This document shows, one piece after another, positions 4,837-37,309 of a DNA stretch of 64,000 bases. A program made the position numbers and the translations under genes. The stretch is from Bacteroidota bacterium (GTDB taxonomy: Bacteria > Bacteroidota > Bacteroidia > UKL13-3). The notes below the pieces were generated by a model. The model had not been told where the DNA came from and did no database searches. It was given only the letters and a program-made list of their open reading frames with translations. The DNA is taken from assembly GCA_051715425.1 (NCBI GenBank), contig JBPXJS010000041.1:336360-400359 (forward strand), given 5' to 3'. The number at the start of each line of letters is the position of its first letter. Position 1 is the stretch's first letter.

Positions 4837-4846
4837 TTCAAAAAAC

Positions 4847-12885: not shown

Positions 12886-12889
12886 AATA

Positions 12890-18035: not shown

Positions 18036-19238
18036 ATGAGCGAATTAAAAAGATGTAAAAAATGTCTCCTTCCTGAGACTCACGAAACGATCATTTTTGA
18101 TGATGACGGAATCTGCAGTGTTTGCAGACAAAATGAATTTAAAAAAGAAAAAATCGACTGGACTTCTAAAAAAGGAGAACTTGATGAACTTATTGCACAG
18201 TATAAAGGAACCGGTGACTACGACTGTATCGTTCCGTTTAGCGGTGGTAAGGACAGTACCTGGACCTTGTATTATCTGATGAAAGAATACAAACTAAAGC
18301 CACTTGTGGTGAGGTTTGACCATGGTTTTCTTCGTCCCAACCTGAATGAAAACACCATTAAGGTATTGAGAAACCTTGGGGCCGATTTCCATTCTTTTAC
18401 CCCAAACTGGAAAGTGGTACAAAGATTAATGTTGCAAAGTTTTCTTGAAAAAGGAGATTTTTGCTGGCATTGTCATACCGGTATTTATTCTTACCCTATG
18501 TGGGTAGCTATCCGATACAATATTCCTTTAATTTTCTGGGGCGAACCATCTTCAGAGTATACTTCATACTATAGTTATGATCAATCTGAAGAGGTTGATG
18601 AAAAAAGATTCAACAGGTATATAAACCTTGGTATTAATGCCCTGGATATGGCTGTAAGAATTGGCGGTGATATAGATGAGCGTGATTTTAAACCATACTC
18701 TTATCCTCCATTAAAGGAGCTGAGAAGAATTGGTTACAGATCAGTTTGTCTTGGTTCCTATATTCCATGGGATGTAAGAACACAATCTGAAATAATAAAC
18801 AAAGAACTTGGCTGGCAGGGCGACCGTGTTGAAAATGTACCGGCTGAATACAGCTATGAGAAAATTGAGTGCTATATGCAGGGTGTGCGCGATTATATCA
18901 AATACATTAAACGAGGATATACCAGACCAACTCACCTTGCTTCAATAGATATCCGCAATGACCGGATGGAGAGAAGCAAAGGCCTGGATCTGATCAATCA
19001 GTTTGAAGGTAAAAAACCACCAAGTTTGGAAATATTCCTTGAGTTGGTTGGTTTAACAGAAGATGAATTTTTTGAGATCGCGAAAAGTCATACCGTTTCT
19101 CCGTGGAAGCTTAATGTATTTGAGCAGGAAATAGGAGAAAAATTACCTGACTTCAGCAAATGGTCGAGAGAAGGACGTGCGCAAAGGGATAAGGCGATGG
19201 AACAAATCGAACATTGGAAAAAATCTTCCGGCTTATAA
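18036..19238 (+). CDS. N-acetyl sugar amidotransferase (PP-loop ATP pyrophosphatase; WbuX/WbpG/LegX-like).
   Basis: N-terminal Cys-rich CKKCLLPET...CSVC motif. PP-loop IVPFSGGKDST. Followed directly by HisH/HisF paralogs. Confidence 0.75.
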   Translation: MSELKRCKKCLLPETHETIIFDDDGICSVCRQNEFKKEKIDWTSKKGELDELIAQYKGTGDYDCIVPFSGGKDSTWTLYYLMKEYKLKPLVVRFDHGFLRPNLNENTIKVLRNLGADFHSFTPNWKVVQRLMLQSFLEKGDFCWHCHTGIYSYPMWVAIRYNIPLIFWGEPSSEYTSYYSYDQSEEVDEKRFNRYINLGINALDMAVRIGGDIDERDFKPYSYPPLKELRRIGYRSVCLGSYIPWDVRTQSEIINKELGWQGDRVENVPAEYSYEKIECYMQGVRDYIKYIKRGYTRPTHLASIDIRNDRMERSKGLDLINQFEGKKPPSLEIFLELVGLTEDEFFEIAKSHTVSPWKLNVFEQEIGEKLPDFSKWSREGRAQRDKAMEQIEHWKKSSGL

Positions 19239-19241
19239 AAT

Positions 19242-19859
19242 ATGATTGGTATCGTAGATTACGGAATGGGTAATCTTTTATCCGTGTACAGCGCATTCGA
19301 TTACCTCGGAGAGGATGTAAAAATATGTCATCATCCGGAGGAACTTCTATCAGTTGATAAGATTGTGATTCCGGGTGTTGGCGCATTTAAAGATTGTATT
19401 GAAAAACTAAACTCCAGTGGTTTTACAGAAGCATTACATGAAAACACAATAACCAAGGCAAAACCTACTATGGGCATTTGTCTCGGGATGCAGGTGATGG
19501 CCAAATCGAGTCTTGAGGGGGGGGAGTATGAAGGTCTTGGATGGTTTGATGCCAGCGTCATTCGCCTCCATCCGGGTGATAAGGATAAAAAGGTACCCAA
19601 TATCGGATGGAATGATATCACTTATAACTCTTCTGTACCTCTGTTTAAGGGGTTACCCCAAAAACCGGATTTTTATCTTGTACATTCTTATTATATGAAA
19701 TGCAACAATCCCGGTCTGGTGGTTGCTTCATATGAATACGGGCATCAGGTAACGGCTGCCGTATTAAAAGATAATATCTTTGCAACACAGTTTCATCCGG
19801 AAAAAAGCCAGGATTACGGATTAAGAATATTAGAAAATTTTATTGACTGGAACCCCTGA
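19242..19859 (+). CDS. HisH-like class I glutamine amidotransferase subunit (WbuY-like).
   Basis: MIGIVDYGMGNLLSV, IVIPGVGAF, GICLGMQ (catalytic Cys) and FHPEKS. Contains a G8 homopolymer at 19517-19524. Confidence 0.85.
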   Translation: MIGIVDYGMGNLLSVYSAFDYLGEDVKICHHPEELLSVDKIVIPGVGAFKDCIEKLNSSGFTEALHENTITKAKPTMGICLGMQVMAKSSLEGGEYEGLGWFDASVIRLHPGDKDKKVPNIGWNDITYNSSVPLFKGLPQKPDFYLVHSYYMKCNNPGLVVASYEYGHQVTAAVLKDNIFATQFHPEKSQDYGLRILENFIDWNP

Positions 19860-19861
19860 TC

Positions 19862-20647
19862 ATGTCAAAAGCCAGATTAATTCCTAAACTTCAGCTTCGC
19901 AGAAGCTCTCAGAATCCATCAAGAATGGTACTGGTGATTACAAAGCAATTTGATACCCCAATTGAAATTGCTGATCCTGTATCGCAAGCCAAAATTTTTC
20001 AGGCACAGGCTGCTGATGAATTAATCTTTATCAATATAGATAAGGAACAAAAGGATATCAATAAATTGGCTGAAATCATTCATAAAGTTTCTGAAGAAAT
20101 ATTTATGCCCATTACAGTGGGCGGAGGAGTTAGCACTGAAGAACATTTCAGGATTCTGCTTGCCAATGGTGCTGATAAAATATCTATTAATACCATTGCA
20201 GTAGAAGATCCTTCTTTCATTACCCGCACCTCAGAAAAATTTGGTGCTCAGTGCGTGGTAGTGAGTATTGACTACCGACAGGAAGCAGATGGAACTTATT
20301 CTGTTTATACAATGGGCGGACAGAAACAAACGAATTTGCATCCTGTTGAATGGGCCATGGAAGCCGAAAGGCTTGGTGCAGGCGAAATTTTATTGTCAAG
20401 CATCGATCATGATGGAATGAGAAACGGGCTAAACCTTGAAGTAACACGAATGGTGGCCGATAAACTTTCCATCCCATTAATCACCTCAGGTGGTTGCGGA
20501 CTTGCACAACATTTTTCCGAAGGATTTCTTAAAGGCAGAGCTGATGCAGTTGCTGCGGGTAACTTCTTTGCTCACAGAGACCAGAATCTGATGCAAACCC
20601 GATCACAAATAAAAAACGCAGGAATTAACATCCGGGTGCATACCTGA
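19862..20647 (+). CDS. HisF-like cyclase/synthase subunit (WbuZ-like).
   Basis: TVGGGVST, ISINT, VVVSIDYR and EILLSSIDHDGM are TIM-barrel HisF motifs. Confidence 0.85.
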   Translation: MSKARLIPKLQLRRSSQNPSRMVLVITKQFDTPIEIADPVSQAKIFQAQAADELIFINIDKEQKDINKLAEIIHKVSEEIFMPITVGGGVSTEEHFRILLANGADKISINTIAVEDPSFITRTSEKFGAQCVVVSIDYRQEADGTYSVYTMGGQKQTNLHPVEWAMEAERLGAGEILLSSIDHDGMRNGLNLEVTRMVADKLSIPLITSGGCGLAQHFSEGFLKGRADAVAAGNFFAHRDQNLMQTRSQIKNAGINIRVHT

Positions 20648-20654
20648 TTACGCA

Positions 20655-21668
20655 TTGAAAAAAATAATACTAAGAGCAGACGGAAATTCTGCAATAGGTT
20701 TGGGTCATGTATATAGGCTGCTTTCCATTGCCAATATAGCCGGAAAAGACTTTGATGTTTGTTTTGTAATAAACAATCCGGAACCTTTTCTTCTTGACCT
20801 GTTAAACATGCATGTGAATAAGGTTATTTCCCTAAATGAAACACATGATTATTCATCACCTTCTATAAAGGATAAAGAAACAGAAATAGCATTTGATATG
20901 GATGGTATTTTAACCGGTGAAGAGATTGTAGTAACAGATGGATACTGGTTTGGAAAACAATATCAGCAGGCTGTAAAAGCAACAGGATGCAAATTGGTTT
21001 GTATAGATGATTTTGCTACCAACCATTTTTACGCAGATGTTGTGATCAATCATGCACCTGGAATACAACCATCACTCTACTCATCAGAACCTTATACAAA
21101 ATTTTGTCTGGGTTTGGATTATGCCATGTTGAGAAATGAATTTTATAGCACGTTTGCTCCGGTTGAAAAACGAGAAAAAGTACTCCTTATCTCAATGGGT
21201 GGAAGCGATGAATTCAAGCTCACTGGAAAATTTCTGCCTTCTATCATCAACAAGGGCGAATTTAAAGCCATTCATATTCTTATCTCTCCCTTATTTGATA
21301 AAGAACACCTGAACCAGATTAATCATTATGTATCCAATCCCAGTCTGAATATAAGATTACATAGCAATCTTACTGCAAAAGATCTTGTACATGTTATGGA
21401 TTCCTGCGCACATGCATTTGTTTCGGCAAGCACTGTTTTATTTGAGGCTTACAGCAGAGGGTTGATTTGTATAACAGGTTATTATACCGGCAACCAACAG
21501 AATATTTACAATGGATTTACCTCTCAAAAACTTGCACATGGTTTGGGTGATCTGAAAACGTTGGAACAAATTTCTTTTCATCATTTAAATGATAGCACAT
21601 TAATCCCTTTGCTTCAACCAATGAAGTCAGATAAAAATCTAAAAAATATTTTCCTTTCTCTATGTTAA
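20655..21668 (+). CDS. pseG: PseG-like UDP-2,4-diacetamido-2,4,6-trideoxy-L-altropyranose hydrolase.
   Basis: N-terminus KKIILRADGNSAIGLGHVYRLLSIA matches the PseG family start. About 337 aa, GT-B-like. Confidence 0.7.
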   Translation: MKKIILRADGNSAIGLGHVYRLLSIANIAGKDFDVCFVINNPEPFLLDLLNMHVNKVISLNETHDYSSPSIKDKETEIAFDMDGILTGEEIVVTDGYWFGKQYQQAVKATGCKLVCIDDFATNHFYADVVINHAPGIQPSLYSSEPYTKFCLGLDYAMLRNEFYSTFAPVEKREKVLLISMGGSDEFKLTGKFLPSIINKGEFKAIHILISPLFDKEHLNQINHYVSNPSLNIRLHSNLTAKDLVHVMDSCAHAFVSASTVLFEAYSRGLICITGYYTGNQQNIYNGFTSQKLAHGLGDLKTLEQISFHHLNDSTLIPLLQPMKSDKNLKNIFLSLC

Positions 21669-23324: not shown

Positions 23325-24383
23325 ATGAACAACACATTTGATATTGGTAAATTTAAGGTAGGCGATGGTCAGCCTGTATTTATTATTGCCGAGCTTTCCT
23401 GTAATCACCAGCAGGATTTTGAACTGGCAAGAAAATCCGTTCTGGCTATGAAAGAATGTGGCGTTGATGCCGTGAAGCTTCAAACAGCCAAACCGTCATC
23501 CATTACCATAAAAGCAGATACTGAGTATTTTAAAATAAAGGGAGGTACCTTATGGGACAATAAAACCCTTTACGATCTTTATTCTGAAGTGTATACCCCA
23601 TGGGAATGGCATAAACCCCTTCAGGAGTTGAGTGAAAGTCTGGGTATGACATTCTTCTCTTCTCCCTTTGATCATGAAGCTGTTGATTTTTTAGAACAAC
23701 ATCAGGTTCCTGCATACAAAATTGCATCCTTTGAAATTACGGATATCCCACTTATTAAATATACAGCCGGTAAGGGCAAACCGATTATTATTTCTACCGG
23801 CATTGCAAATGAAGAAGATATAAAAGATGCCGTTGAAGCCTGTCATTCTGTTGGAAACTATCAGATAGCCTTATTAAAATGTACTTCGGCCTACCCAACT
23901 CCACTTGAGGAAGTAAATCTGAATGTAATACCCGAATTGAAAAGAAAATTTAATACAATTATTGGACTTTCAGATCATACACTTGGTAGTCTGGTTCCAA
24001 CCGGGGCCGTAGCACTTGGAGCACGCATTATAGAGAAACATTTTATTTTAGACAGAAAGCTGGGTGGGCCAGATGCCGCCTTTTCTATGGAACCACATGA
24101 ATTTAAGGCGATGATTGATACCGTAAGGGATCTTGAAAAAGCAATGGGCAAAAGTGAAATTATCATTTCCGAAAAAGTTGAAAAAAACAGACAATTTGCA
24201 CGCTCGCTTTTCATCGTAGAAGATGTAAAAAAGGGCGACTTGCTTACACCTGAAAACGTGAGATCAATACGACCAGGATATGGCATAAGACCTAAACATC
24301 TTGAAAATATACTTGGAAAAAGAGTAACCAGAGATATAGAAAAAGGAACCCCATTGGATTTTAATATGATTGACGCATCATGA
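23325..24383 (+). CDS. pseI: Pseudaminic acid synthase PseI (NeuB family, copy 3).
   Basis: Close full-length resemblance to characterised PseI: FIIAELSCNH, VKLQT, FSSPFD, AYKIASFE, LLKCTSAYPTP, GLSDHTLG and a C-terminal SAF domain. Confidence 0.9.
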   Translation: MNNTFDIGKFKVGDGQPVFIIAELSCNHQQDFELARKSVLAMKECGVDAVKLQTAKPSSITIKADTEYFKIKGGTLWDNKTLYDLYSEVYTPWEWHKPLQELSESLGMTFFSSPFDHEAVDFLEQHQVPAYKIASFEITDIPLIKYTAGKGKPIIISTGIANEEDIKDAVEACHSVGNYQIALLKCTSAYPTPLEEVNLNVIPELKRKFNTIIGLSDHTLGSLVPTGAVALGARIIEKHFILDRKLGGPDAAFSMEPHEFKAMIDTVRDLEKAMGKSEIIISEKVEKNRQFARSLFIVEDVKKGDLLTPENVRSIRPGYGIRPKHLENILGKRVTRDIEKGTPLDFNMIDAS

Positions 24384-25644: not shown

Positions 25645-26676
25645 ATGATCATTGCAAAACCAGATAATATCTTTTTCTTCACCGGCCCTGCGGTATGGAT
25701 ACCCGAAGCCATCAACTATGCATCTGCCAATGGTATTCAGTGCTATGTTTTTGCCGTTACAAGGCATCTGGAGGAAATTGTAGACAGGGAAAACAATATT
25801 ACTTTTAAAGATGTATTGGAAAAGAATCAGATAGCTTATTTCCATTGTGATGATATCAATACGTCTGCCGATTTTAAAAGACTTGCTACTAAAAACAGCA
25901 TTGGTATAGGCTTAGGGGAAGCGTATACTTTTACAACAGAAACGCTTGCACTGGTTGACCGGAAAATCTTTGATATGATGATTATCCGTATGCCAAAATA
26001 CAGAGGCGGTGCTCATTTTACCTGGCAAATTCTGCAACAAAACAGAATTGGAGCATGGTACCTTCAACTGGTTAATGAAGAAATGATTCCAGGTGGTTAC
26101 GATCACGCTGAAATTATAAAAACACACGAATATATTTTGCCTCAATGGGCTCGCACACCAGCCGACTATTTTAAAGTAGCTGATGTAGAAGGACTCAATC
26201 TTTTTAAGGGGTTTCTTAATGATATTGCATCAGGAAAAGATTTTCATCTGACATGGTTACAGGAGAATTTTTCATTATACCTGCCACGCCTGTATACGTT
26301 AAAACATGCCTTTATTGACTGGAGTTGGAGCGGAGAAGAAATAGAACGTTTTATATGTGCCTTTGATGATCCTTATGTTGGCGCCAGCACCTTTTGCAAT
26401 GGTACCAGGGTATTGATAAAAAAAGCCCAGTTTGAACGTGGAGAGGGGGCTTTCCATCCGTTTATTAATGGTATCATTTACCGTATTTTTAACGGAAAAA
26501 TATTTGTGGCAGTAAATAACGGAAGCATCATTATAGAAACAATTCAAACGGAAAGCGGAGAATCATACCTTCCGGAACTGAAACCAGGATACCGGTTATT
26601 TACTCCGCAGAGCAAAATAGAAGAGGCCATGATGTTTAATGCCGAATTTGATTCAAAAGGAATAAAAAATAAGTAA
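25645..26676 (+). CDS. Formyltransferase-domain protein (long form with a C-terminal extension).
   Basis: MIIRMPKYRGGAHFTWQILQ. The C-terminal region is paralogous to that of 4847-5860 (W...ER.ICAFD.PY.GA....N). Start set at MIIAKPD after the upstream stop (the track ORF starts at 25594). Confidence 0.6.
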   Translation: MIIAKPDNIFFFTGPAVWIPEAINYASANGIQCYVFAVTRHLEEIVDRENNITFKDVLEKNQIAYFHCDDINTSADFKRLATKNSIGIGLGEAYTFTTETLALVDRKIFDMMIIRMPKYRGGAHFTWQILQQNRIGAWYLQLVNEEMIPGGYDHAEIIKTHEYILPQWARTPADYFKVADVEGLNLFKGFLNDIASGKDFHLTWLQENFSLYLPRLYTLKHAFIDWSWSGEEIERFICAFDDPYVGASTFCNGTRVLIKKAQFERGEGAFHPFINGIIYRIFNGKIFVAVNNGSIIIETIQTESGESYLPELKPGYRLFTPQSKIEEAMMFNAEFDSKGIKNK

Positions 26677-27962
26677 TGATATTTGACAGACAAAACAGTT
26701 GTAACAGAATGATGCGTTTTATAGAGGAAGTTTATCCTTTGCAGCGCATGATTAATTCTGAAGGACTTGACAGTGCTTTTGAGATCGTAAAACGAGAAAT
26801 TCCGGAAACCATTATACATGAATACCCTGCCGGAATGGAATGTGGAGACTGGATAGTACCTAAAGGATGGAAAGTAAAAGAAGCTTACCTGAAAAACAAA
26901 GCAGGTGATATTATTGCAGATTTTGCAGAACATCCGCTTTTTGTTGCCGCATACAGTGAACCGGTGAGCGGTTGGTTCACAAAATCTGAAATAGCCCGCC
27001 ATGTGCGTTGCCACCCAACCAAACCGGGAGCTTATTTTTTGGAGCATCGCAATGCCTACAATTATAAATTAACAGACTGGGGCATTACGCTTCCTAAAAA
27101 CACATGGGATAACCTGCCCGATGCAGAGTACCATGTTCATATTGATATAGAATGGAGCAACCGGAGTATGAAGGTTGCAGAAGTATTTGTTCAGGGTCAG
27201 TCAGATAAAATCATTTCTATTAGTGCGCATATTGACGAAATATGTAATGACAACCTGAGCGGATGCGCTGCCGGAATGGAAATGATCCGCTATATTCAGC
27301 AATTACCTTCTCCTAAATATTCCTATCAGTTGCTTTTGATACCGGAAACGATAGGTACCTTTTTTTATGTTTTTAATAACCTGCAGAGGGTAAAGAAAAC
27401 AATAGGCATGTATAACCTTGAAACTGTTGGCTCAGGTGAAAGTTGGGTATTAAAAAAAGCCCTTACACCAAACAGTTTAATTGAACAGGCTCTCCATTCA
27501 GCGCTTGTTAACACCGGTTTCCCTTATAAACATATTGATTTTTTTGAAGGATATGGGAATGATGAACGTGTGTACGAATGGCCTACGCTTAAAATTCCGG
27601 GTGTAGCACTTCAGCGTTATCCTTTTTACGAATACCATTCCGGAGATGATACCCCGGAGAATATTGATCAGGAGCATTTGTTTAATGCTGTTCAAATCTC
27701 GTGTAACCTCGTAGATGTTTTAGAAACCGATTATATTCCTGAATATACTCAGGTTATTCCACCATGGCTTACACGACACGATCTGTATTATGACAGCAGG
27801 GATAATACAGCCAACTTTCATAAGTTCAACAATCTCCTACTTTTTAATATTGATGGAACCAAATCCCTTTCGGAACTTTGCGGGATAGCCGGTATAAGAT
27901 TTACCGAGGCCTATGAATATCTGGAAAAATTTGTTGCCAAAGGTTTTATTATAAAAAAATAA
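26676..27962 (+). CDS. DUF4910 / aminopeptidase-like (M28 fold) protein with a C-terminal winged helix. Resembles the Campylobacter Cj1295 family implicated in non-acetyl acylation of pseudaminic acid.
   Basis: 428 aa. HIDIEWSN, SAHIDEICNDNLSGCAAGME and YEYHSGDDTPE are M28-like metal-site segments. Confidence 0.5.
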   Translation: MIFDRQNSCNRMMRFIEEVYPLQRMINSEGLDSAFEIVKREIPETIIHEYPAGMECGDWIVPKGWKVKEAYLKNKAGDIIADFAEHPLFVAAYSEPVSGWFTKSEIARHVRCHPTKPGAYFLEHRNAYNYKLTDWGITLPKNTWDNLPDAEYHVHIDIEWSNRSMKVAEVFVQGQSDKIISISAHIDEICNDNLSGCAAGMEMIRYIQQLPSPKYSYQLLLIPETIGTFFYVFNNLQRVKKTIGMYNLETVGSGESWVLKKALTPNSLIEQALHSALVNTGFPYKHIDFFEGYGNDERVYEWPTLKIPGVALQRYPFYEYHSGDDTPENIDQEHLFNAVQISCNLVDVLETDYIPEYTQVIPPWLTRHDLYYDSRDNTANFHKFNNLLLFNIDGTKSLSELCGIAGIRFTEAYEYLEKFVAKGFIIKK

Positions 27963-27975
27963 TTTTCATTGTTTT

Positions 27976-29436
27976 ATGCTTTTTAACTCATTCGAGTTTC
28001 TGCTCTTCTTTCCTCTTGTTACCCTGATTTACTTTTTGATCCCGCATCGTTTCAGGTGGTTTCATCTGTTGCTTGCGAGTTGTGTTTTTTATGCGGCCTT
28101 TATTCCGGCCTATATCCTTATTCTGTTTTTTACCATCATCATAGACTATGTGGCTGGTATCCTCATTGAAAAAACGGAAGGCCCAAAACGAAAATGGTAT
28201 CTTACCATGAGCATCATTGCCAATGTGGGTGTTCTTGCCATATTCAAATATTACAACTTCTTTATAGGGAACATCAACGATTTGTTGTTGCTTATTGGTA
28301 TTCATAGTAATCCACTCCCCTATCTTGGTATTATTCTGCCCATTGGTCTTTCCTTTCATACATTTCAGGCGATGAGTTATACCATTGAAGTGTATCGTAA
28401 AAATCAGCCGGCAGAAAAACATTTTGGCATTTATTCTCTTTATGTAATGTTCTATCCACAACTTGTTGCCGGACCTATTGAGAGGCCACAGAATGTGATT
28501 CATCAGTTCCACGAGGAGAAAAAATTCGATTACAGCCTTGCGGTCAAGGGAATGCGACTTATGCTTATCGGGATGTTTAAAAAAGTGGTTATTGCCGACA
28601 GGCTTGCCCTGTTTACCAGTCCTGTATTTAACGACCCCGACCAGTATTCTTCCGTTGTACTTTTTATTGGTGCTGTATTTTTTGCCTTTCAGATTTTCTG
28701 TGATTTTTCCGGGTACTCTGATATTGCTTTGGGATCAGCTCAGGTAATGGGAATAACCCTCATGAAAAACTTTGATAAGCCGTATCATTCTCAATCCATA
28801 TCAGAATTCTGGAGCCGCTGGCATATTTCTCTTAGCACATGGTTCAGGGATTATTTATATATTACTCTCGGTGGAAACAGGGTGTCGGTTCCAAGATGGT
28901 ACTTTAACCTGTTTTTTGTTTTTCTGGTTAGCGGTTTCTGGCACGGTGCCAACTGGACTTTTATCATATGGGGTATGTTACACGGATTCTACCTGATATT
29001 TGCATTAGCAACCTCCGGATTTAGAAAGTCGCTGGCTGCTGCAGTAAAACTGGATAAATTGCCCCGCATTCAATCCGTTTTAAATATACTTATCACATTT
29101 GTACTTGTAACCCTGGCCTGGATCTTTTTCAGGGCCAATACCGTAAAAGAAGCAATGTTCATCATCACTTCTGTGCTCCATATTCCGCTTGATATTTTAT
29201 CAGGATCTGCTAACCTGTTAAGCAAATTTCCTGTTACTGCCAATACCTTTCTCATCTCAGTAGCCATGATTATTCTCCTTGAAACATATCACACCTTACA
29301 TTCTAATGCAAAAATGATATCCCTGTTTTCAAAACCTAAATCTTACTTACGTTGGTCAGCATATTACATGCTTATAATAGGTTTGGTTTTTTTAGGAGTA
29401 TGGGGAGAACAACAATTTATTTATTTCCAGTTTTAA
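27976..29436 (+). CDS. MBOAT-family membrane-bound O-acyltransferase (AlgI/DltB-like).
   Basis: 486 aa, multi-TM. Conserved region FWSRWHISLSTWFRDYLYI with the catalytic His. Confidence 0.85.
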   Translation: MLFNSFEFLLFFPLVTLIYFLIPHRFRWFHLLLASCVFYAAFIPAYILILFFTIIIDYVAGILIEKTEGPKRKWYLTMSIIANVGVLAIFKYYNFFIGNINDLLLLIGIHSNPLPYLGIILPIGLSFHTFQAMSYTIEVYRKNQPAEKHFGIYSLYVMFYPQLVAGPIERPQNVIHQFHEEKKFDYSLAVKGMRLMLIGMFKKVVIADRLALFTSPVFNDPDQYSSVVLFIGAVFFAFQIFCDFSGYSDIALGSAQVMGITLMKNFDKPYHSQSISEFWSRWHISLSTWFRDYLYITLGGNRVSVPRWYFNLFFVFLVSGFWHGANWTFIIWGMLHGFYLIFALATSGFRKSLAAAVKLDKLPRIQSVLNILITFVLVTLAWIFFRANTVKEAMFIITSVLHIPLDILSGSANLLSKFPVTANTFLISVAMIILLETYHTLHSNAKMISLFSKPKSYLRWSAYYMLIIGLVFLGVWGEQQFIYFQF

Positions 29437-29437
29437 T

Positions 29438-30565
29438 ATGATTCGGTTTTTCAAGCGACTTTTCCTTTTTTCGGTTCCAATTATTGTTTTTTTCAGCGTT
29501 CCTCTGTTTGTTCTTTTTCCCTCAGGTGAACTTACCTCCAATACCACCATGCTTGAGGAGCATATAGAGAACAAACAATCCCTTATCGGCTTGGCATATA
29601 GTAATCCGGTAACTTTTCTTAAACTTCATGCGGCAAAACAGAAAACACCTGAAATTCTTGCTTTGGGTACCTCGAGAATAATGCAGGTACGAGACTTTTT
29701 CTTTAAAAATTCTTCATCATTCTACAATGCAGGTGGAGGAATTTTCAGAATAAATTACCTGCGCTATTTTACTTCAGAAGTAATTAAGTCAGCGAAACCA
29801 CGTATGATCATCGTTTGCCTTGATCAGAATTTTTTTAACCCTAACTGGGATAACCTGAGCAAAACGAAATTTGACGATGAATACAAGGATGAATACAACG
29901 CGTTGTCTTATATTTTTAATAATGCAACCACCTGCTGGCATGATGCTTTTGAGGGAAAAGTTCCTGCGGATTATTGTTTAAATCTAAAACCCGGACAAAT
30001 TGGTTTAACTGCCGCAGTAAAGAAAAATGGGTTCCGGAGTGACGGAAGTTATTATTCAGGACAGATAAAAAGTCATCCGGAAGAAGATCAGGATTATCAG
30101 TTCAAAAACACCCTTGATAGAATTGCTAAAGCAACCAAACGATTCGAATATGCCCAACAAATTAACAGCAGAGCAGTAAATGAGCTGGACTCTTTCCTTA
30201 CTTTTTGCAAAGTCAACAATATTCATGTAGTAAGTTTTCTCCCTCCTTATGCAAATAAAATATTATCAGTTATGCGTTCAAAAGGTAACGACTATGCGTA
30301 TCTGGATAAGATCATGCCCGCTTTAAAACCGGTATTTGAAAAACACAGGTTAAACGTATTTGATTTTACAGATCTTTCCACCATTCAGGCAGGAGATGAA
30401 GAAGTGCTTGACGGATTCCACGGATCTGAAAAAATATACCTGAGGATGATGATTCAAATGGCGAATAAAGATAGTATACTGGCAAAATCTTGTGATGTAC
30501 CTGCACTTCAGCATTTGCTCAACCAATCCTATTCCCACCAATTTATACATAACGAAACTTACTAA
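29438..30565 (+). CDS. Putative MBOAT partner protein (AlgJ/DltD-like, N-terminal signal anchor, SGNH-like).
   Basis: Starts immediately after the MBOAT gene. N-terminal TM helix. ALGTSRIMQ motif. The call is by position and architecture only. Confidence 0.35.
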   Translation: MIRFFKRLFLFSVPIIVFFSVPLFVLFPSGELTSNTTMLEEHIENKQSLIGLAYSNPVTFLKLHAAKQKTPEILALGTSRIMQVRDFFFKNSSSFYNAGGGIFRINYLRYFTSEVIKSAKPRMIIVCLDQNFFNPNWDNLSKTKFDDEYKDEYNALSYIFNNATTCWHDAFEGKVPADYCLNLKPGQIGLTAAVKKNGFRSDGSYYSGQIKSHPEEDQDYQFKNTLDRIAKATKRFEYAQQINSRAVNELDSFLTFCKVNNIHVVSFLPPYANKILSVMRSKGNDYAYLDKIMPALKPVFEKHRLNVFDFTDLSTIQAGDEEVLDGFHGSEKIYLRMMIQMANKDSILAKSCDVPALQHLLNQSYSHQFIHNETY

Positions 30566-30567
30566 CT

Positions 30568-32157
30568 GTGAACGCCCTTTTCCTGAAATTCGCAAAAGAC
30601 CCAAGCAAAAGAATTGTAAAACGTATTATAGAAGATTTACATATCAATCATGTGCATGTTATTTCTACAAGCACGGGGCATTTTAGTGAATCTGAACAAA
30701 AAACATTTACAAAGGGTACCAAATTTACCCAACTCTCTGCAGAGGAGCATTATTTTGGTGTTTATGAACATGTAAACTGGAATGAACTGGAGCCAGTTGA
30801 CAAAAGCCTGCTTGATAAGTTTGAAAAACATTACTTCAACCTGTTTGCCGTTTTTGATAAAGACTATCTGCCTTACAATTTTGAAGACCAATACTCTTAT
30901 CCTAAACATATTATTGAGCCTATACTTAAACATCAGTTTAATAAGTATGCGGTAAACAGGATATACAGCTATGATCATTTTGACAAGATCAGAATGATGC
31001 ACCGACATATCAGATTCTGGTATAACTATATCAAACGTGAAAAGATTGAAGCTGCCTTTTTTACCCTATGCCCGCACTTTCCTTTTGAGTATATTATTTA
31101 CGCGCTTTGTAAGGAAATGAATATTCCTACGGCCATGTCGTATTTTTCCAGCCCTCCAGGTTACTCACTGGTATTTAAAGATATTGATGATCCTTATGCA
31201 TATACTCATAAGAAATTTCTTGAACTATCCGCAGATGTAAACCTTCAAACTTCTATTAAACTAAATGATGACTTTGAGGCTGAATGGAATGCAAAAACCA
31301 GAGATATGGAAAAGCCCTGGTATTTTGATACAAAACTAATGGCAAAATTCGATCAGGAGGGTAGATTTAAACATGAAGAAAATTCAAGGGTAAATGAGTG
31401 GAAGAGGCAACGTCCAATTTCTTTTAAAGAGAAAATTTGGAGTAAAGTGAAACGCAGATTTGATATAGATTATATCTATTTCAAAATGAAATTTGGAAAA
31501 GTTCCATACTGGAAAAAGTTATACAATTATTATCAGTCTATAACTGAAACACCAGACTTTAATAAGCCCTACATCTATCTGCCGCTTGCCTACCAGCCTG
31601 AATTATCAACCATGCCGCTGGGAGGTTACTATTTCTATCAAACTACCCTGATTGATATGATTTCCCATTATTTACCGGAAGGTTGGTTTATTTATGTAAA
31701 GGAGCATATTATGCCAAGCAAGAGAATGAGGAGCGTTCAATTCTATCAGGATTTGAAAAACAATCCGAAGGTAAAACTCATCAGCAAGGATGTAGATTCC
31801 ATGAAACTTGCCGAACACGCAAAGGCTGTCGCCACCATTACAGGAACACCAGGCTGGGAAGGACTTTTCCGGGGCAAACCATGTCTGCTCTTCGGACATA
31901 TCTTTTACGAATACGCCCCGGGAGTTTTCAGAATCAGAACAAATGAAGATTGCCGGATGGCTATCAAGAAAATCGAAGAAGGCTTTACTACATCAACTGA
32001 TGACTTAATGATATTTATGAAAGCATTACAACTAACCAATATCAGAGCCGCTATGGAGCATGCCACACTCGATTTTAAAGGATACGATCTGGATGAAAAT
32101 GCTGAGATTTTCGGTAAAGAATATGTTCGGGTAATTAAAGAGCAATTAAAATCATAA
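30568..32157 (+). CDS. Capsule_synth-family (KpsS/KpsC-like, GT107-type) glycosyltransferase candidate.
   Basis: YIYLPLAYQPELSTMPLGG ... FIYVKEHIMPS resembles the KpsS core LQVYNDSQ ... YLVIKHHPMD. Confidence 0.45.
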   Translation: MNALFLKFAKDPSKRIVKRIIEDLHINHVHVISTSTGHFSESEQKTFTKGTKFTQLSAEEHYFGVYEHVNWNELEPVDKSLLDKFEKHYFNLFAVFDKDYLPYNFEDQYSYPKHIIEPILKHQFNKYAVNRIYSYDHFDKIRMMHRHIRFWYNYIKREKIEAAFFTLCPHFPFEYIIYALCKEMNIPTAMSYFSSPPGYSLVFKDIDDPYAYTHKKFLELSADVNLQTSIKLNDDFEAEWNAKTRDMEKPWYFDTKLMAKFDQEGRFKHEENSRVNEWKRQRPISFKEKIWSKVKRRFDIDYIYFKMKFGKVPYWKKLYNYYQSITETPDFNKPYIYLPLAYQPELSTMPLGGYYFYQTTLIDMISHYLPEGWFIYVKEHIMPSKRMRSVQFYQDLKNNPKVKLISKDVDSMKLAEHAKAVATITGTPGWEGLFRGKPCLLFGHIFYEYAPGVFRIRTNEDCRMAIKKIEEGFTTSTDDLMIFMKALQLTNIRAAMEHATLDFKGYDLDENAEIFGKEYVRVIKEQLKS

Positions 32158-32161
32158 GAGG

Positions 32162-33355
32162 ATGAAAAAATATAGTGATATATCCGTTGGCGACTCAGCC
32201 GAAATAAAGCACACCATAACCGATCATGATATACGCAAGTTTGTTGACCTGACAGGTGATGACAACAAACTTCATATTGATTCCGGTTTTGCAGCCAACA
32301 CCTCATTTAAAAAGCCTGTTGCACACGGTATGCTGGGTGCCTCTTTCATCTCCACTATTATAGGCACAAAATTACCTGGCGATGGTGCATTATGGTTTTC
32401 GCAAAGTTTAGAATTTTTGATGCCTGTAAGGGTTGGCGATACATTAACCATTACTGCAGAAGTAACAGGGAAAAATGACAGAAATAACAGTATAGAGTTA
32501 AGAACCGATATATATAATCAGAACAAACAAAAAGTAACCTCCGGCACCGCTAAGGTAAAAATAGTAGAACAGGAACTGCCTTCTGAAAAAAATCAGGAAG
32601 AATTAAGCTCAGGCATTAAAAACATACTTATAATTGGCGCATCCGGAGGCATCGGACAAGCCATCAGTAAAAAACTTAGTCAGGAGGGTTATAACCTGAT
32701 TCTCCACTATAACAACAACCCGGGCAAGGTGGAACAAATTGCAGCTACAAAAGTTAACGACAATCAAAAAATTGCCTGTGTTAAGGCTGATTTAAGTATA
32801 GACAGCGAGCTTGACGGGTTAATCTCCAAAGCAGAAAGAACACTTGGTTCTGTTGATGGTATCATTAATGCGGCAACTGTAAATGTTTCAAACATTAAAT
32901 TTGAGAAAACAGACTGGAACGACCTGAACAGGCATCTTCAGATAAACATTAAAGCCAATTACGAATTGTTGAAAAGGCTGGTTCCTTCTATGAAACAGCG
33001 GAAACAAGGGAAGATCATTTTTATAACCACCCAATATACAGAGAGCACTCCTCCTGCAGAGCTTATTCATTATGTAACAGCAAAATCCGCCCTAAATGGT
33101 TTTGCCAAATCTATGGCTGTAGAGCTGGGTCCTCACAATATCCAGGTTAATCTTGTTTCTCCGGGTATGACTGAAACTGAACTGATTGCTGATGTTCCTG
33201 AAAAAGCCAGACTCGTAGCCGCAGGTAAAACCCCGCTGCGAAGACTTGCTACTCCTCTGGATATAGCAAATGTGGTATCCTTTTTATTTTCCGAAAACAG
33301 CAATTATATAACAGGTGAAACCATTCGTGTGAATGGCGGACAAACCATGATATAA
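32162..33355 (+). CDS. Fusion of a MaoC-like (hot-dog fold) dehydratase and a short-chain dehydrogenase/reductase (FabG-like).
   Basis: N-terminus FVDLTGDDNKLHID and VAHGML (MaoC). C-terminus ILIIGASGGIGQAI and YVTAKSALNG (SDR Y-x3-K). Confidence 0.75.
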   Translation: MKKYSDISVGDSAEIKHTITDHDIRKFVDLTGDDNKLHIDSGFAANTSFKKPVAHGMLGASFISTIIGTKLPGDGALWFSQSLEFLMPVRVGDTLTITAEVTGKNDRNNSIELRTDIYNQNKQKVTSGTAKVKIVEQELPSEKNQEELSSGIKNILIIGASGGIGQAISKKLSQEGYNLILHYNNNPGKVEQIAATKVNDNQKIACVKADLSIDSELDGLISKAERTLGSVDGIINAATVNVSNIKFEKTDWNDLNRHLQINIKANYELLKRLVPSMKQRKQGKIIFITTQYTESTPPAELIHYVTAKSALNGFAKSMAVELGPHNIQVNLVSPGMTETELIADVPEKARLVAAGKTPLRRLATPLDIANVVSFLFSENSNYITGETIRVNGGQTMI

Positions 33356-35109
33356 TGGAATTGATAAAATACACAGACCTCTTAAAAGAAAACAAAATCC
33401 TGAAAGACAAACTTGCAGGAAAACCTCAGGTAAAAATTCACCTGTTGAATAATGTTACAGTGAATATCCTGAAAAATGTACTTGAATACAGGTTACGTTT
33501 GTCCGGCAACAATGTTGAAATGGTGATGCATGATTATGACACCATTATCCCGGACAGTATGCAACTTCAGGATGAGAATACTCCCAGAATCATATTTTGG
33601 GATATTTGCAATTATTTACCCGGTATTTATTACAAAAGCAATCTGTGGTCAAATAAGGAACTCGATGACTTTATCTCTAAAGTAAGAAATGATATTGATT
33701 TGGTGTTTCAATCTCTTTCCAAAGCAAGCATTGCATTTGTTAATACCTTTAGTGCATCGCCCTTTGCCCTGCATGCAGTAAAACAGACACCATTGCAGGT
33801 GGCCGCTGAGGTATTGAATAAATACCTCATTGACAGAAAACCGGAAAATGTTCATCTGGTTGATATGTCGGTCATTTATCAGGAAATATCTGTGAGCATA
33901 GCGACAGATCTGAGAATGTTTAATAACAGCAAAACGTTACACAGTTATCCGTTTTTCTATGCGTATGTTAACCGCATCATGCCCGTGCTGTCATCAGTAA
34001 CCGGGAAAGCCAAAAAGGCATTGATATTTGATTGTGATAATTCCTTATGGCACGGGATTATCGGTGAAGACGGGAAAGAAGGAATTAAAATGTCTGCAGA
34101 AGACAGCAAAGGCATTTTTTTTCATCAGGTTCAACGTATTGCTGTGGAGTTAAGTAAACAAGGAATCATTATTGGCTTAAACAGTAAAAACAACCCGGAA
34201 GATGTGGAGGATATCCTTCAATCGCATCCGGATATGTTCTTAAGAGATGAGCATATTGTAATAAAAAAAGTAAACTGGATCGATAAAGCATCAAATCTTA
34301 AGCAGATAGCCAAAGACCTGAATATTGGTATTGACAGTCTTGTTTTTATAGATGATTCTGATTTTGAAATCAATTTAGTAAGAGAACAACTGCCCGAGGT
34401 TTCCACATTTCAGGTTCCCAAGGCCCTGCATGATTACCCAAAGATGATGAAAGAAATTTCCAACCTCTTTTATAATCACTCACAAACAGGTGAAGATCTG
34501 GAAAGGGTGAACATGTATAAACAAGAACAGGCACGGGAACAACAAAAAGAAACATTCGGTAATATTGATGAGTACCTTCATTCACTTGGCATAAAAATAA
34601 AAATATATAAAGACGATGTATCATTGGTTGCCAGAACCGCACAAATGACACAAAAGACCAATCAGTTTAATCTCACCACCAAACGATACACTGAAAACGA
34701 TATTCAGCATTTTATCACATCTGCATCACATCATGTGTATGTATTTGAGGTTAGTGATAAATTTGGGTCGTATGGAATAACCGGCATGTGCATTACAAAT
34801 GCTGAAAACAATAACGTTTTGATTGATTCCTTTTTGATGAGCTGCCGGGTATTGGGAAGAAAAATAGAATCAAGTTTTCTTTCATACATCATTGATGATT
34901 TGGTAAAAGAAGGAGTTAAGTCTATGCTCTCCTCATATATCAAAACTGCAAAAAATGCTCAGGTTGAAATGTTTTTTGAAAACAATGGGTTCAGCCTCAC
35001 TGAATCATCAGAGGGTGCTAAGAACTATACCCTCAACACAATAGATTGGAAAAACCACACTCCTGATTTTATCACTATTGAAAACGCTGATAACATTAAA
35101 ACTGCATAA
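33355..35109 (+). CDS. FkbH-like HAD-superfamily subfamily IIIC phosphatase/acyltransferase with a C-terminal GNAT-like domain.
   Basis: KALIFDCDNSLWHGIIGEDG is the hallmark FkbH/HAD-IIIC motif I. Further HAD motifs VFIDDS and GLNSKNN. The C-terminal ~150 aa is GNAT-like. Confidence 0.75.
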   Translation: MELIKYTDLLKENKILKDKLAGKPQVKIHLLNNVTVNILKNVLEYRLRLSGNNVEMVMHDYDTIIPDSMQLQDENTPRIIFWDICNYLPGIYYKSNLWSNKELDDFISKVRNDIDLVFQSLSKASIAFVNTFSASPFALHAVKQTPLQVAAEVLNKYLIDRKPENVHLVDMSVIYQEISVSIATDLRMFNNSKTLHSYPFFYAYVNRIMPVLSSVTGKAKKALIFDCDNSLWHGIIGEDGKEGIKMSAEDSKGIFFHQVQRIAVELSKQGIIIGLNSKNNPEDVEDILQSHPDMFLRDEHIVIKKVNWIDKASNLKQIAKDLNIGIDSLVFIDDSDFEINLVREQLPEVSTFQVPKALHDYPKMMKEISNLFYNHSQTGEDLERVNMYKQEQAREQQKETFGNIDEYLHSLGIKIKIYKDDVSLVARTAQMTQKTNQFNLTTKRYTENDIQHFITSASHHVYVFEVSDKFGSYGITGMCITNAENNNVLIDSFLMSCRVLGRKIESSFLSYIIDDLVKEGVKSMLSSYIKTAKNAQVEMFFENNGFSLTESSEGAKNYTLNTIDWKNHTPDFITIENADNIKTA

Positions 35110-35111
35110 AA

Positions 35112-36524
35112 TTGAATAATTCCCGGGATTACTTATCGTACTTACTTCGTATAGAAAAACTTATTTCCGATAAACACCGGCATATTTTCAGCGCACTGTT
35201 TATACAATTCTATCTCTATCTAACAGGAAGTGTACATTCGAAGAAAACCCCAAAAAGAAATATCACCTTTTACCTAGCCAAGTTTTTGAGATTTATCCAA
35301 CTCACATTGTTAAATCTTAAATCAGCAAACGCGGATATAGTGGTATGGATAGCAGACAAATCGCATATTAACGAGGTTTCTGCTGTTTGTGTGAACCTAA
35401 TGGGCAATGGAAAAAAAGTATTAATTGTTTCAGCAAAAAATGATTTGCTCAAAAATCCTGCACTTCAACCCTTTCAAAGGTTATTCATTCCAATTCCTTT
35501 CACCAAACCAATGCCAGAATCAGAAGTTGATGAATTTGTTAAGGCATTTACAAGTGCTGAAGTATTGACCGGTGAGCTAAAGCTGAATGAGACCGAAATG
35601 AACCTTTTTAAACAATGCCTGACAGACTGGGGAAATAATACAAAAAGGCTAGGTGAAATTTTAAATCAACTCCTCAAAAGGATCAAGCCGGAAGCTGCCA
35701 TAATTGGTTATGATATCCCACCTGATGGAAGAACCTTTACCCTGGTATGTAAAGAAAATAATATTAAAACATTTATGATCCAGCATGGTTCAGTTGCTGT
35801 TAAAAATGGCATATTCAGCGGACATAAAGTTGACCATTACATGGTTTATGGAGAACTCACAAAATCTATTTTAAAAGATGTAAATTGTGAATCAGAAATA
35901 TATGTAGCCGGCCCGCCCTATTTAGACCATATAAAGACAAAGAAAAAAGCCGATATCCGGCAACAAACCAGCAGAAAAAAAAGAATTCTAGTAGCCTTTT
36001 CAGGACCGGGGCATTTTACCACATTGGAACATCACCAATTATCTATCAAGGTTCTGATTACTTTAGTTAAGCAAATGCCTGATACAGAATTCTTCCTTAA
36101 ACTTCACCCCAAAGACAGTTTAACATACTATACCGATCTGTTATCTTATTCTAATGTTTTTGATAAACTCCCAAACAACAATAGCACTGATATTTTCGAT
36201 TGGCTTGCCCATAGTGACCTTTTGATTACAGGAGCTTCTACTGTGTGCCAGGAGGCAATGATTATAAATATTCCGGCCATTTGCCTCGACCTCTTAAACC
36301 ACTACTCCAGCGTGGAGTTTATAAAAGATAAAGCGGTGTATTACAATACCTCTGAAACTCAATTAAGCGATACCATTAATAACCTATTTAATGGTATTGA
36401 GGATTTACAAATAAAACAAAATGCCATAGGGCATGTGGAACATTTTTTTGGCAGGCTTGATGGAAAAGCGTCAACCCGTTGTGCCGACTATATACTCAAA
36501 CAATTAGACAGAAATGGAAAATAA
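35112..36524 (+). CDS. TagF/KpsS-like GT-B fold transferase (Glyphos_transf / Capsule_synth superfamily), hypothetical.
   Basis: FMIQHGS, FFLKLHPKD (conserved K-x-HP) and LLITGAST. Confidence 0.35.
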   Translation: MNNSRDYLSYLLRIEKLISDKHRHIFSALFIQFYLYLTGSVHSKKTPKRNITFYLAKFLRFIQLTLLNLKSANADIVVWIADKSHINEVSAVCVNLMGNGKKVLIVSAKNDLLKNPALQPFQRLFIPIPFTKPMPESEVDEFVKAFTSAEVLTGELKLNETEMNLFKQCLTDWGNNTKRLGEILNQLLKRIKPEAAIIGYDIPPDGRTFTLVCKENNIKTFMIQHGSVAVKNGIFSGHKVDHYMVYGELTKSILKDVNCESEIYVAGPPYLDHIKTKKKADIRQQTSRKKRILVAFSGPGHFTTLEHHQLSIKVLITLVKQMPDTEFFLKLHPKDSLTYYTDLLSYSNVFDKLPNNNSTDIFDWLAHSDLLITGASTVCQEAMIINIPAICLDLLNHYSSVEFIKDKAVYYNTSETQLSDTINNLFNGIEDLQIKQNAIGHVEHFFGRLDGKASTRCADYILKQLDRNGK

Positions 36525-36741
36525 AGTAAAGGAAATAATGGCTGCTGTTTTCGAAACAGAGCCATCATTAATTAATGAAAACAGCAGTCCCGATAATATC
36601 GAGAACTGGGATTCTATCAGACATATGAATCTGATTGTTGCCCTTGAGGAGGAATTCGGAATCCAGTTTAATGATGACCAGATTGCCGACATGACCAACT
36701 TTAAGCTGGTAATTGCTACCCTAAAAGAATTTAGTTTATAG
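36514..36741 (+). CDS. Acyl carrier protein (phosphopantetheine attachment site).
   Basis: 75 aa, acidic. WDSIRHMNLIVALEEEFGIQF has the Ser (DSI) attachment motif and helix II. Confidence 0.75.
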   Translation: MENKVKEIMAAVFETEPSLINENSSPDNIENWDSIRHMNLIVALEEEFGIQFNDDQIADMTNFKLVIATLKEFSL

Positions 36742-36745
36742 GTTT

Positions 36746-37309
36746 ATGCTTAAAGCAATTGGCTACTTCCATGCGATTCTTAATTATGCTTATAAATATT
36801 ATTTGCAGATTAAGCACTACCCAAAATTAAAGATAGAGGGTCGCCCCTTGATTGGAAAAAGGGTTCGGTTTATTCTGGCAACAGGTTCCAAAACCACTAT
36901 TGGAAAAGGGGTAATGATTTCTGATGATGTGATTATCCAGGCATGGGCTGGAGCACAAATAACTATTGGAAAGAAATGCTTCTTTAACAGAACAGTATCG
37001 CTTATTGTTCATGAGAAACTGGAAATAGGCAACGAAGTAATGCTTGGAGAAAATGTGAAAGTTTATGACAATGAACATGTGATAAACGGGAATAAGGTGG
37101 AGCGAAAATTGTTTAATACGGCTCCTGTTGTTATCCGTGATAATTGCTGGATTGCCAACAGTGCGGTTGTATTGAAAGGAACAACCATGGGGCCAAATAC
37201 ACTAGTTGCAGCATTAACAATGGCCTCCGGCAATCTGGAAGCCAACGCCATGTATATGGGTGTACCATGCAGAAAATTAAAAAAACTGGAAACGGAGGAA
37301 TCAAAATAA
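36746..37309 (+). CDS. Left-handed beta-helix (hexapeptide repeat) acetyltransferase (WbbJ/PglD/LegH-like).
   Basis: Repeating [LIV]-G-x4 hexapeptides: IGKGVMISDDVII, IGNEVMLGENVKV, IRDNCWIANSAVV. Confidence 0.75.
   Translation: MLKAIGYFHAILNYAYKYYLQIKHYPKLKIEGRPLIGKRVRFILATGSKTTIGKGVMISDDVIIQAWAGAQITIGKKCFFNRTVSLIVHEKLEIGNEVMLGENVKVYDNEHVINGNKVERKLFNTAPVVIRDNCWIANSAVVLKGTTMGPNTLVAALTMASGNLEANAMYMGVPCRKLKKLETEESK

Follow-up and report, generated by a model that had tools for sequence, protein, structure and literature searches.

The subject of this report is a single gene, at positions 30568–32157 of the plus strand in a 64,000-nucleotide stretch of a Bacteroidota genome (assembly GCA_051715425.1, contig JBPXJS010000041.1, positions 336,360 to 400,359; this whole stretch is called the window). 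Its product, the target protein, is a GT-B protein of the Capsule_synth superfamily, and profile comparisons place it in a distinct sister clade beside the KpsS1-like clade of glycosyltransferase (GT) family GT118, not within it. The protein is probably a cytidine monophosphate (CMP)-nonulosonate transferase, and its donor is most likely a decorated form of pseudaminic acid (Pse) made by the PseB, PseC, PseG and PseI enzymes of the same window, which would be added to the capsule repeat unit. We put the probability of this reading at about 70%. It is built on the superfamily, the fold, homology to KpsS1 over the full length, residue conservation and the association of the family with nonulosonate genes.

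Pseudaminic acid, legionaminic acid (Leg) and other nonulosonic acids shape immune recognition, phage attachment and colonisation, and to our knowledge their attachment to glycans is the least known step. Flagellin glycosylation aside, the parts of the literature cited here name only KpsS1, shown biochemically, and two Tannerella enzymes, shown genetically (PMC12887879, PMC5420450). The target is a concrete candidate transferase for a Bacteroidota capsule, and it belongs to a broad sister family of KpsS1 that is testable with existing CMP-Pse reagents.

Fold and superfamily of the target protein

The open reading frame (ORF) has a GTG start at 30568, two bases past the upstream stop codon, and encodes a product of 529 amino acids; a public contig carries an identical called protein of the same length. 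An initial annotation, made from the sequence alone, had described the protein as KpsS/KpsC-like and had quoted a core of three motifs, all of which are present: LPLAYQPELS at residues 338–347, GG at 352–353 and YVKEHIMPS at 376–384. The profile search that it proposed confirmed the assignment. The match to PF05159 (Capsule_synth) scores 31.9 bits, above the gathering cut-off of 20 (E = 1.2e-7), and covers the C-terminal half only (residues 370–463); 47 of 50 family members match the same model. When the profile of the target family was compared to the PDB, KpsC was found with an E-value of 1.5e-13 and WbbB, a GT99 enzyme, with 1.3e-3. Both alignments span the region from the HP motif to the GxEA motif.

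An AlphaFold2 (AF2) model of the target, built on 50 relatives, has a predicted local distance difference test (pLDDT) score of 87.9 and a predicted template modelling (pTM) score of 0.88. It contains two Rossmann-like domains with a long helical insertion between them. In addition, the target and its 52% relative, carried by GCA_943372105.1, share a clade-specific insertion of low confidence at residues 101–133. A Foldseek search of the PDB with this model ranks WbbB first and KpsC second, followed by generic GT-B proteins. A chance Pfam match was considered and rejected because PF05159 is above threshold and the family profile and Foldseek agree. [quoted passage not shown]

This likeness raises the question of whether the target is itself a β-Kdo transferase of the KpsS/KpsC type (GT107), whose role would be to construct a Kdo linker or to attach Kdo to the polymer. 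In favour of this are its Pfam family and KpsC as its closest sequence in the PDB, as well as the best structural matches, WbbB and KpsC. Here, the shared features are the GT-B fold, an HP-type CMP-binding motif, the GxEA motif and a carboxylate at the position of the nucleophile. However, the sequence likeness to KpsC/KpsS and WbbB is limited to approximately 90 residues of the C-terminal, CMP-binding Rossmann domain, and the Foldseek TM-scores of the target against KpsC, normalised by the KpsC chain, are 0.38–0.47. The QVESD motif of KpsC is a QxxxD nucleophile motif according to the account in PMC12887879, and residue E345 of the target aligns with its Asp. The counterpart in the target reads A341-Y-Q-P-E345, with a family consensus of HxQPE, so that the Asp is exchanged for Glu and the Gln for Ala or His, giving (H/A)xQPE overall.

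The genetic context differs as well. The Kdo enzymes are found with Kdo and ABC-transporter capsule genes, whereas the target lies among nonulosonate genes in a Wzx/Wzy locus, and its relatives co-localise with Pse or Leg genes. None of the scanned ORFs of the window matched KpsM/T/E/D-type ABC export or Kdo-synthesis families. The similarity over the whole module, the full QxxxD and HP motifs (of HP, the target keeps the His, as H380) and the KpsMT/KpsDE/Kdo-supply context that characterise GT107 are lacking, and a Kdo-transferase role, which we regard as extremely improbable, was rejected on the extent of KpsC similarity, the motif change and the type of locus. Of the original "GT107-type" label, the part that stands is the resemblance of the CMP-binding half to KpsC; it is with KpsS1 of GT118, instead, that both domains align.

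Relationship to KpsS1

KpsS1 of Acinetobacter baumannii, from KL2-type loci, is a retaining Pse5Ac7Ac transferase and is the founding member of GT118 (PMC12887879, citing Walklett et al. 2024). Glu132, which is part of a YE motif, is proposed there as the catalytic base (PMC12887879). The KpsS1 protein was recovered from NZ_CP077849.1 (L089:11122-12564; loci are numbered with the prefix L), and carries Y131-E132 as that paper cites. Its gene follows six ORFs of the size expected for Pse-pathway genes and one of wzx size. A second protein of this type is encoded in the O-antigen cluster of Escherichia coli O165 (L083:18452-19885), between wzx and wzy and after pseBCFGI, and is 36% identical to KpsS1. 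The A. baumannii records NZ_CP077849.1 and NZ_CP104448.1 (3.66 and 4.09 Mb) are plasmid entries in PLSDB, yet they bear the chromosomal K locus.

Homology between the target family and these proteins extends over both domains. Using hhalign, the target-family profile aligns to KpsS1 with 99.8% probability over 318 columns (E = 2.8e-28) and to the E. coli O165 protein over 367 columns (E = 3.9e-26). Pairwise similarity is more restricted: a tblastn comparison of the target with the region that encodes KpsS1 aligns residues 335–463 only, at 35.7% identity (E = 3e-14). The two proteins have further features in common, namely the PF05159 match, a TxT..E motif, a similar length (480 amino acids for KpsS1 and 529 for the target) and a gene position just after the Pse module of a Wzx/Wzy locus.

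At the same time, identity is approximately 22%, and cross-profile scores separate the two clades. A KpsS1-like profile scores its own members at 477–705 bits and target-clade members at 47–184 bits, whereas a target-clade profile gives 196–560 bits for its own members and 104–211 bits for KpsS1-like members. The target itself scores 98 bits with the KpsS1-like profile (E = 2.5e-32, residues 304–496) and 485 bits with the profile of its own family.

Conserved residues and a proposed mechanism

The key residues of the target are H170, Q343-P344-E345, K378-E379-H380, R388 and E431. When 60 sequences of the target clade and 61 KpsS1-like ones were aligned together, P-L-H-x-[Q/H]-P-E, K-[E/D]-H, E431 and G443 proved invariant throughout the two clades, and so did E345, K378 and H380; KpsS1 has H-P-E and K-D-H where the target has Q-P-E and K-E-H. 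The clades differ in the N-terminal domain. The YE glutamate is present in all 61 KpsS1-like sequences, whereas the target clade has Ala, Ser, Pro or similar at this position and the target itself has T166. Four residues further on, P169-H170 is invariant in the target clade, and the KpsS1-like proteins have Ser-Asn there.

Conservation was also calculated for the 141 best family representatives. Here, E345, Q343 and K378 are conserved at 100% and H170 at 99%, while the Pro of the HP motif, which the target does not have, is kept in 87%. The position of H380 is occupied by Asn in 13% of these sequences; either the alignment is at fault here or these members form a subgroup that binds CMP differently.

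Four points are inferred: the donor (Pse over other nonulosonates), net retention, what E345 and H170 do in the reaction, and which acceptor is used. The target would be a soluble or peripheral GT-B enzyme that transfers a nonulosonate from its CMP donor onto the lipid-linked repeat unit of a Bacteroidota capsule that depends on Wzx/Wzy. By homology to KpsS1 (GT118) and the retaining β-Kdo transferases (GT99, GT107 and GT140), the reaction would proceed by double displacement. The C-terminal Rossmann domain would bind CMP, with contacts made by H380, the His of the HP motif, and by E431. E345 of the Q-P-E motif would then attack C2 and expel CMP, resulting in a covalent sugar-enzyme adduct; intact-mass MS has been used to look for adducts of this kind in WbbB D232C and KpsC D160C. 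The adduct of the target would be resolved by an acceptor hydroxyl, activated by a base in the N-terminal domain, so that the overall outcome is retention. In the target clade, the base may be the invariant H170, as this clade does not have the YE glutamate proposed for KpsS1. For the family, this gives a mutational hypothesis, with E345 as nucleophile and H170 as base.

Nonulosonate genes of the window

The initial annotation placed the gene in a nonulosonic-acid locus, and this is correct. Three NeuB paralogues lie in the window together with two CTP_transf_3 cytidylyltransferases; PseB, PseC, PseG and PseI all exceed their NCBIfam equivalog cut-offs. The Pse pathway made up of these four enzymes is complete. 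PseB (11875–12885; 506 bits) and PseC (12863–14044; 467 bits) provide its first two steps. They are followed on the same plus strand by PseG, the UDP-sugar hydrolase (20655–21668; 163.7 bits, cut-off 153.55), and PseI, the pseudaminic acid synthase (23325–24383; 480.8 bits, cut-off 340), which sits approximately 6.2 kb upstream of the target. The plus-strand CTP_transf_3 gene at 15931–16668 is the candidate CMP-Pse synthetase.

A second nonulosonate module, also on the plus strand, consists of NeuB1 (1916–2938), the hydrolysing 2-epimerase NeuC (2928–4088) and a CTP_transf_3 cytidylyltransferase (9733–10428). No match to the DNA of NeuB1/NeuC was found in E. coli genomes. The third NeuB paralogue (14954–15934, plus strand) is below the cut-off for both the NeuB and the PseI models, and neither a pathway nor a transferase can obviously be assigned to it. 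As the initial annotation had remarked, no canonical sialyltransferase-like gene is visible; none of the window ORFs scanned matched a sialyltransferase-type Pfam family.

Distribution and gene neighbourhood of the family

An exhaustive search returned 5,895 clusters (50% identity) at E ≤ 1e-30, with the KpsS1-like clade included. The idea of a rare family, from 137 matches in a word-index search, was rejected as a sensitivity artefact once this result was in hand. One genome per species was searched with a query alignment of 10 sequences, and 78 loci were found in many phyla. These include Bacteroidota, Proteobacteria, Cyanobacteria, Chlorobium, Planctomycetota, Myxococcales, Firmicutes, many members of the Candidate Phyla Radiation (CPR/Patescibacteria) and Halorubrum.

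Neighbourhoods were counted for the 60 loci with at least 12 kb of sequence. A NeuB homologue is present within 10 kb in 44 of them, at a median distance of 2.7 kb and mostly on the same strand, and some nonulosonate gene is present in 49. By a rough estimate, a random gene would be that close to NeuB approximately 1% of the time. Target-family genes adjoin NeuB, PseB or PseC homologues in Halorubrum ejinorense (L062) and in many CPR loci (L012, L033, L038, L045). This implies that a haloarchaeon and Patescibacteria would have nonulosonate-decorated surfaces made with the target family.

In a neighbour-joining tree with context labels, the target groups with L002, L004, L085, L086 and L025. 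L086 and L025 are clearly Pse-type modules and are the nearest relatives with informative context. As in the window, the target-family gene of L086 comes straight after PseI, a formyltransferase and a PIG-L gene. The same locus has a fused cytidylyltransferase and class-III aminotransferase of 697 amino acids (L086:1951-4050), and the two are adjacent genes in the window (15931–18017). The aminotransferase part matches an NCBIfam glutamate-1-semialdehyde aminomutase-like model, and the fusion may point to amino-group chemistry on the CMP-sugar or on a precursor of it.

The initial proposal of a nonulosonate transferase with a CMP donor is well supported by the homology and by this conserved neighbourhood, and we retain it as a prediction. 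What it had missed is precedent, from 2015 and 2024 (see below).

A second GT-B enzyme in the window

The initial annotation pointed to a second GT-B protein of the TagF/KpsS type, encoded at 35112–36524 on the plus strand. The ORF exists and encodes 470 amino acids with an HP motif, KLHPKD. The TagF part of the description failed: the suggested PF04464 (Glyphos_transf) search gave 17.8 bits, below the gathering score of 22.1, and a confident model of the protein has UDP-GlcNAc 2-epimerases, which are generic GT-B proteins, as its top Foldseek matches, not TagF. On these grounds the TagF-type assignment was rejected. The sole Pfam match above threshold is Epimerase_2 (31.2 bits versus 30.6). 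Homology links the C-terminal domains of this protein and of the target family (hhalign 96.7%, E = 3.4e-10); at the position of the presumed catalytic E345 of the target, the second family has an invariant Gly.

A different GT-B family offers a parallel. Tanf_01245, TFUB4_00887 and BFO_1060 of Tannerella forsythia belong to it and were shown genetically to be transferases of Pse and Leg derivatives for the O-glycan (PMC5420450). The second ORF scores 66.8 bits with the NCBIfam model NF046086 (BFO_1060_trans) against a cut-off of 200, and aligns to model positions 201–364 only. All 25 relatives that were found match BFO_1060_trans and TIGR04396 below cut-off, via the C-terminal domain. The Tannerella enzymes and the second ORF have in common the phylum, the HP motif, the C-terminal 160 or so residues and, for the second ORF, adjacent nonulosonate genes. 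They differ in their N-terminal domains, which show no sequence relationship, and the score falls far short of the model cut-off. The target ORF has no match to the BFO_1060_trans model.

In L088, NeuB1, NeuC, a cytidylyltransferase, a 2-hydroxyacid dehydrogenase and Wzx precede a relative of the second GT-B, and this locus has neither a target-family gene nor Pse genes. Relatives of the second GT-B co-occur with the target family in L085 and L086. L085 has two such paralogues (4574-6001 and 9899-11323) which, with its target-family gene, make three CMP-type GT-B genes.

These contexts suggest a division of labour in which the target would transfer the Pse derivative with retention and the second GT-B, a candidate for the other module, would transfer the NeuB1/NeuC-derived nonulosonate, probably by inversion; for this second assignment, support is thin and comes from a handful of loci. 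The original proposal was that either ORF could be the missing Pse/Leg transferase. The contexts of L086 and L088, together with the tree, argue instead that both probably are, for different sugars. According to PMC12887879, Kdo-like retaining enzymes suit Pse, with its axial C5 substituent, better than sialic-acid-like sugars. The two-enzyme split agrees with this argument. Two CMP-binding GT-B enzymes and two nonulosonate modules in one locus suggest that donor specificity could perhaps be predicted from the neighbourhood.

Donor and reaction of the target

It could be that the target is a nonulosonate transferase for another donor, that is, for the Leg- or neuraminic acid (Neu)-type product of NeuB1/NeuC or for the product of the third NeuB, and that Pse is moved by the second GT-B or another enzyme. 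We regard this as unlikely. It draws on the three NeuB genes and two cytidylyltransferases, on the Pse-derivative transferase among the Tannerella enzymes that resemble the second GT-B, and on L004, a 33% relative that has a Leg-like look with weak PseB/PseC matches. However, the target gene is found at the end of the Pse block both here and in L086, association with Pse is seen for the closest relatives whose context is informative, and in L088 it is a relative of the second GT-B that is paired with NeuB1/NeuC. Moreover, CMP-Pse is the donor of KpsS1, the sole proven enzyme that is homologous over both domains.

Several observations weigh against a Pse transferase and are gathered here. The window makes at least two and perhaps three nonulosonates, and the assignment of the donor therefore rests on gene order and a few related loci. 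A subclade of the family accompanies NeuC-type, Leg-like modules (L031, L036, L042, L046 and L077), which also favours another donor; the family appears to be a nonulosonate-transferase family that is not strictly Pse-specific. In 11 of the 60 loci, no nonulosonate gene is present within 10 kb. The few relatives that have a source name are all called hypothetical proteins, and an NCBIfam scan of the target produced no model matches. Without the YE glutamate of KpsS1, the second half-reaction and even the stereochemical outcome may differ in the target clade. Finally, the target and its 52% relative have A341 where the family has His or Gln, at the carboxylate-binding position of QxxxD, H-I-M-P where the family has H-P-x-Q, beside catalytic residues, and Y357 where the family has Asp, Asn or Glu.

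Such substitutions beside catalytic residues would also fit a protein that binds a CMP-nonulosonate and does something else. Its task could then be to modify the CMP-sugar or hydrolyse it, to polymerise the nonulosonate, or to act as a protein glycosyltransferase. The setting among tailoring genes (MBOAT, FkbH, acyl carrier protein, MaoC-SDR and AsnB) is consistent with such a role, as is the GT-B fold, which also hosts hydrolysing epimerases; many of the relatives are from CPR bacteria and archaea. Nonetheless, we consider these activities quite improbable. The residues that align with the nucleophile and with the CMP-binding positions of retaining transferases do not vary, KpsS1, a homologue, is a genuine transferase acting on a sugar acceptor, and the window already has a PseG hydrolase and NeuC. 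Transfer of a Pse derivative to the capsule repeat unit is still the reading that we prefer.

The capsule locus and its tailoring genes

The window is one plus-strand capsule locus of approximately 62 kb (1–63232) with a G+C content of about 0.38, and it holds more than eight glycosyltransferases, many of them of GT4 and GT2. It is opened by an UpxY-family antiterminator (687–1193, above the NCBIfam cut-off), which marks the start of a Bacteroidota-type capsule locus, and is closed by a phosphoglycosyltransferase (62645–63232); both the UpxY family and the G+C content indicate Bacteroidota. Wzx (10425–11870) and Wzy (45820–47091) are both encoded; these four genes and those that follow are on the plus strand unless a range is given without strand. 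Behind the candidate CMP-Pse synthetase comes the class-III aminotransferase (16668–18017), followed by a WbuX-type N-acetyl sugar amidotransferase and a HisH/HisF-like pair (18036–20647), which presumably make the acetimidoyl (Am) group.

Tailoring genes are concentrated near the target. Between PseI and the target or just after it are a PIG-L deacetylase, a GNAT protein, a formyltransferase-like protein, a DUF4910 protein and an MBOAT protein; a MaoC-SDR fusion, FkbH, an acyl carrier protein, a hexapeptide acyltransferase and AsnB are also found by the target. Directly upstream of it (26676–30565, range only) are the DUF4910/M28 aminopeptidase-like protein, the DltB-like MBOAT and a 375-amino-acid protein without a family match. 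In the O-antigen cluster of Legionella pneumophila serogroup 6/12, the genes flanking NeuB include a "putative aminopeptidase" as well as a "capsule polysaccharide biosynthesis protein" (PMC3694923).

The two GT-B genes are separated by the MaoC-dehydratase/SDR fusion (32162–33355) and an FkbH-like HAD-IIIC protein (33355–35109), and the second is followed by an acyl carrier protein of 75 amino acids (36514–36741) and a hexapeptide acyltransferase (36746–37309). FkbH enzymes load a glyceryl unit onto a carrier protein, so this set of genes (32162–37309), probably an N-acyl decoration cassette, could equip the nonulosonate with an N-glyceroyl (Gra) or hydroxyacyl group. For the Pse5Am7Gra of Tannerella, the genetic basis of Gra has been described as unknown (PMC5378307).

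Precedents and related systems

In 2015, Kenyon et al. proposed that PF05159 proteins adjoining nonulosonate modules are likely nonulosonate transferases, with Gtr59 (AIT56356), KpsS1, KpsS2, the E. coli O165 protein and a Bacteroides fragilis protein as examples (PMC4487303). The Gtr59 family comprises proteins from A. baumannii KL12/KL63, E. coli O108 (orf10) and B. fragilis CL05T00C42 (EIY96989), and is predicted to transfer acinetaminic acid (Aci), 8-epilegionaminic acid (8eLeg) or Pse (PMC4487303). As far as a comparison by description only allows, it is similar to the target in its PF05159 match, in the adjacent nonulosonate module and in one Bacteroides case beside a Pse module. This family may be identical to the target clade or separate from it.

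As the concept of a PF05159 nonulosonate transferase was predicted in 2015 and shown in 2024, the surprise is limited and the gain is incremental. The novelty would lie in a large variant family, so far unannotated, in which the position of the catalytic base has changed, and in the predicted assignment of two enzymes to two sugars. Tentatively, and with more doubt than confidence, the target family could be a large unnamed glycosyltransferase family apart from GT118, in which a double displacement like that of the Kdo transferases uses H170 in place of the YE glutamate in the second half-reaction and subclades perhaps split between Pse and Leg. If true, it would constitute a new CAZy family and the main route by which nonulosonic acids reach the surfaces of uncultured lineages.

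A different type of Pse transferase may exist in E. coli O136. Its cluster (L084:14634-19583, NZ_CP013662.1) has Pse genes and no PF05159 gene, and a hypothetical protein of 342 amino acids between wzx and wzy is the obvious candidate. This protein was rejected as a comparator for the target since the hhalign probability is 0.7% and it does not match PF05159. In the same record, 'pseI' is annotated at 2.6 kb and is apparently fused with pseG/H.

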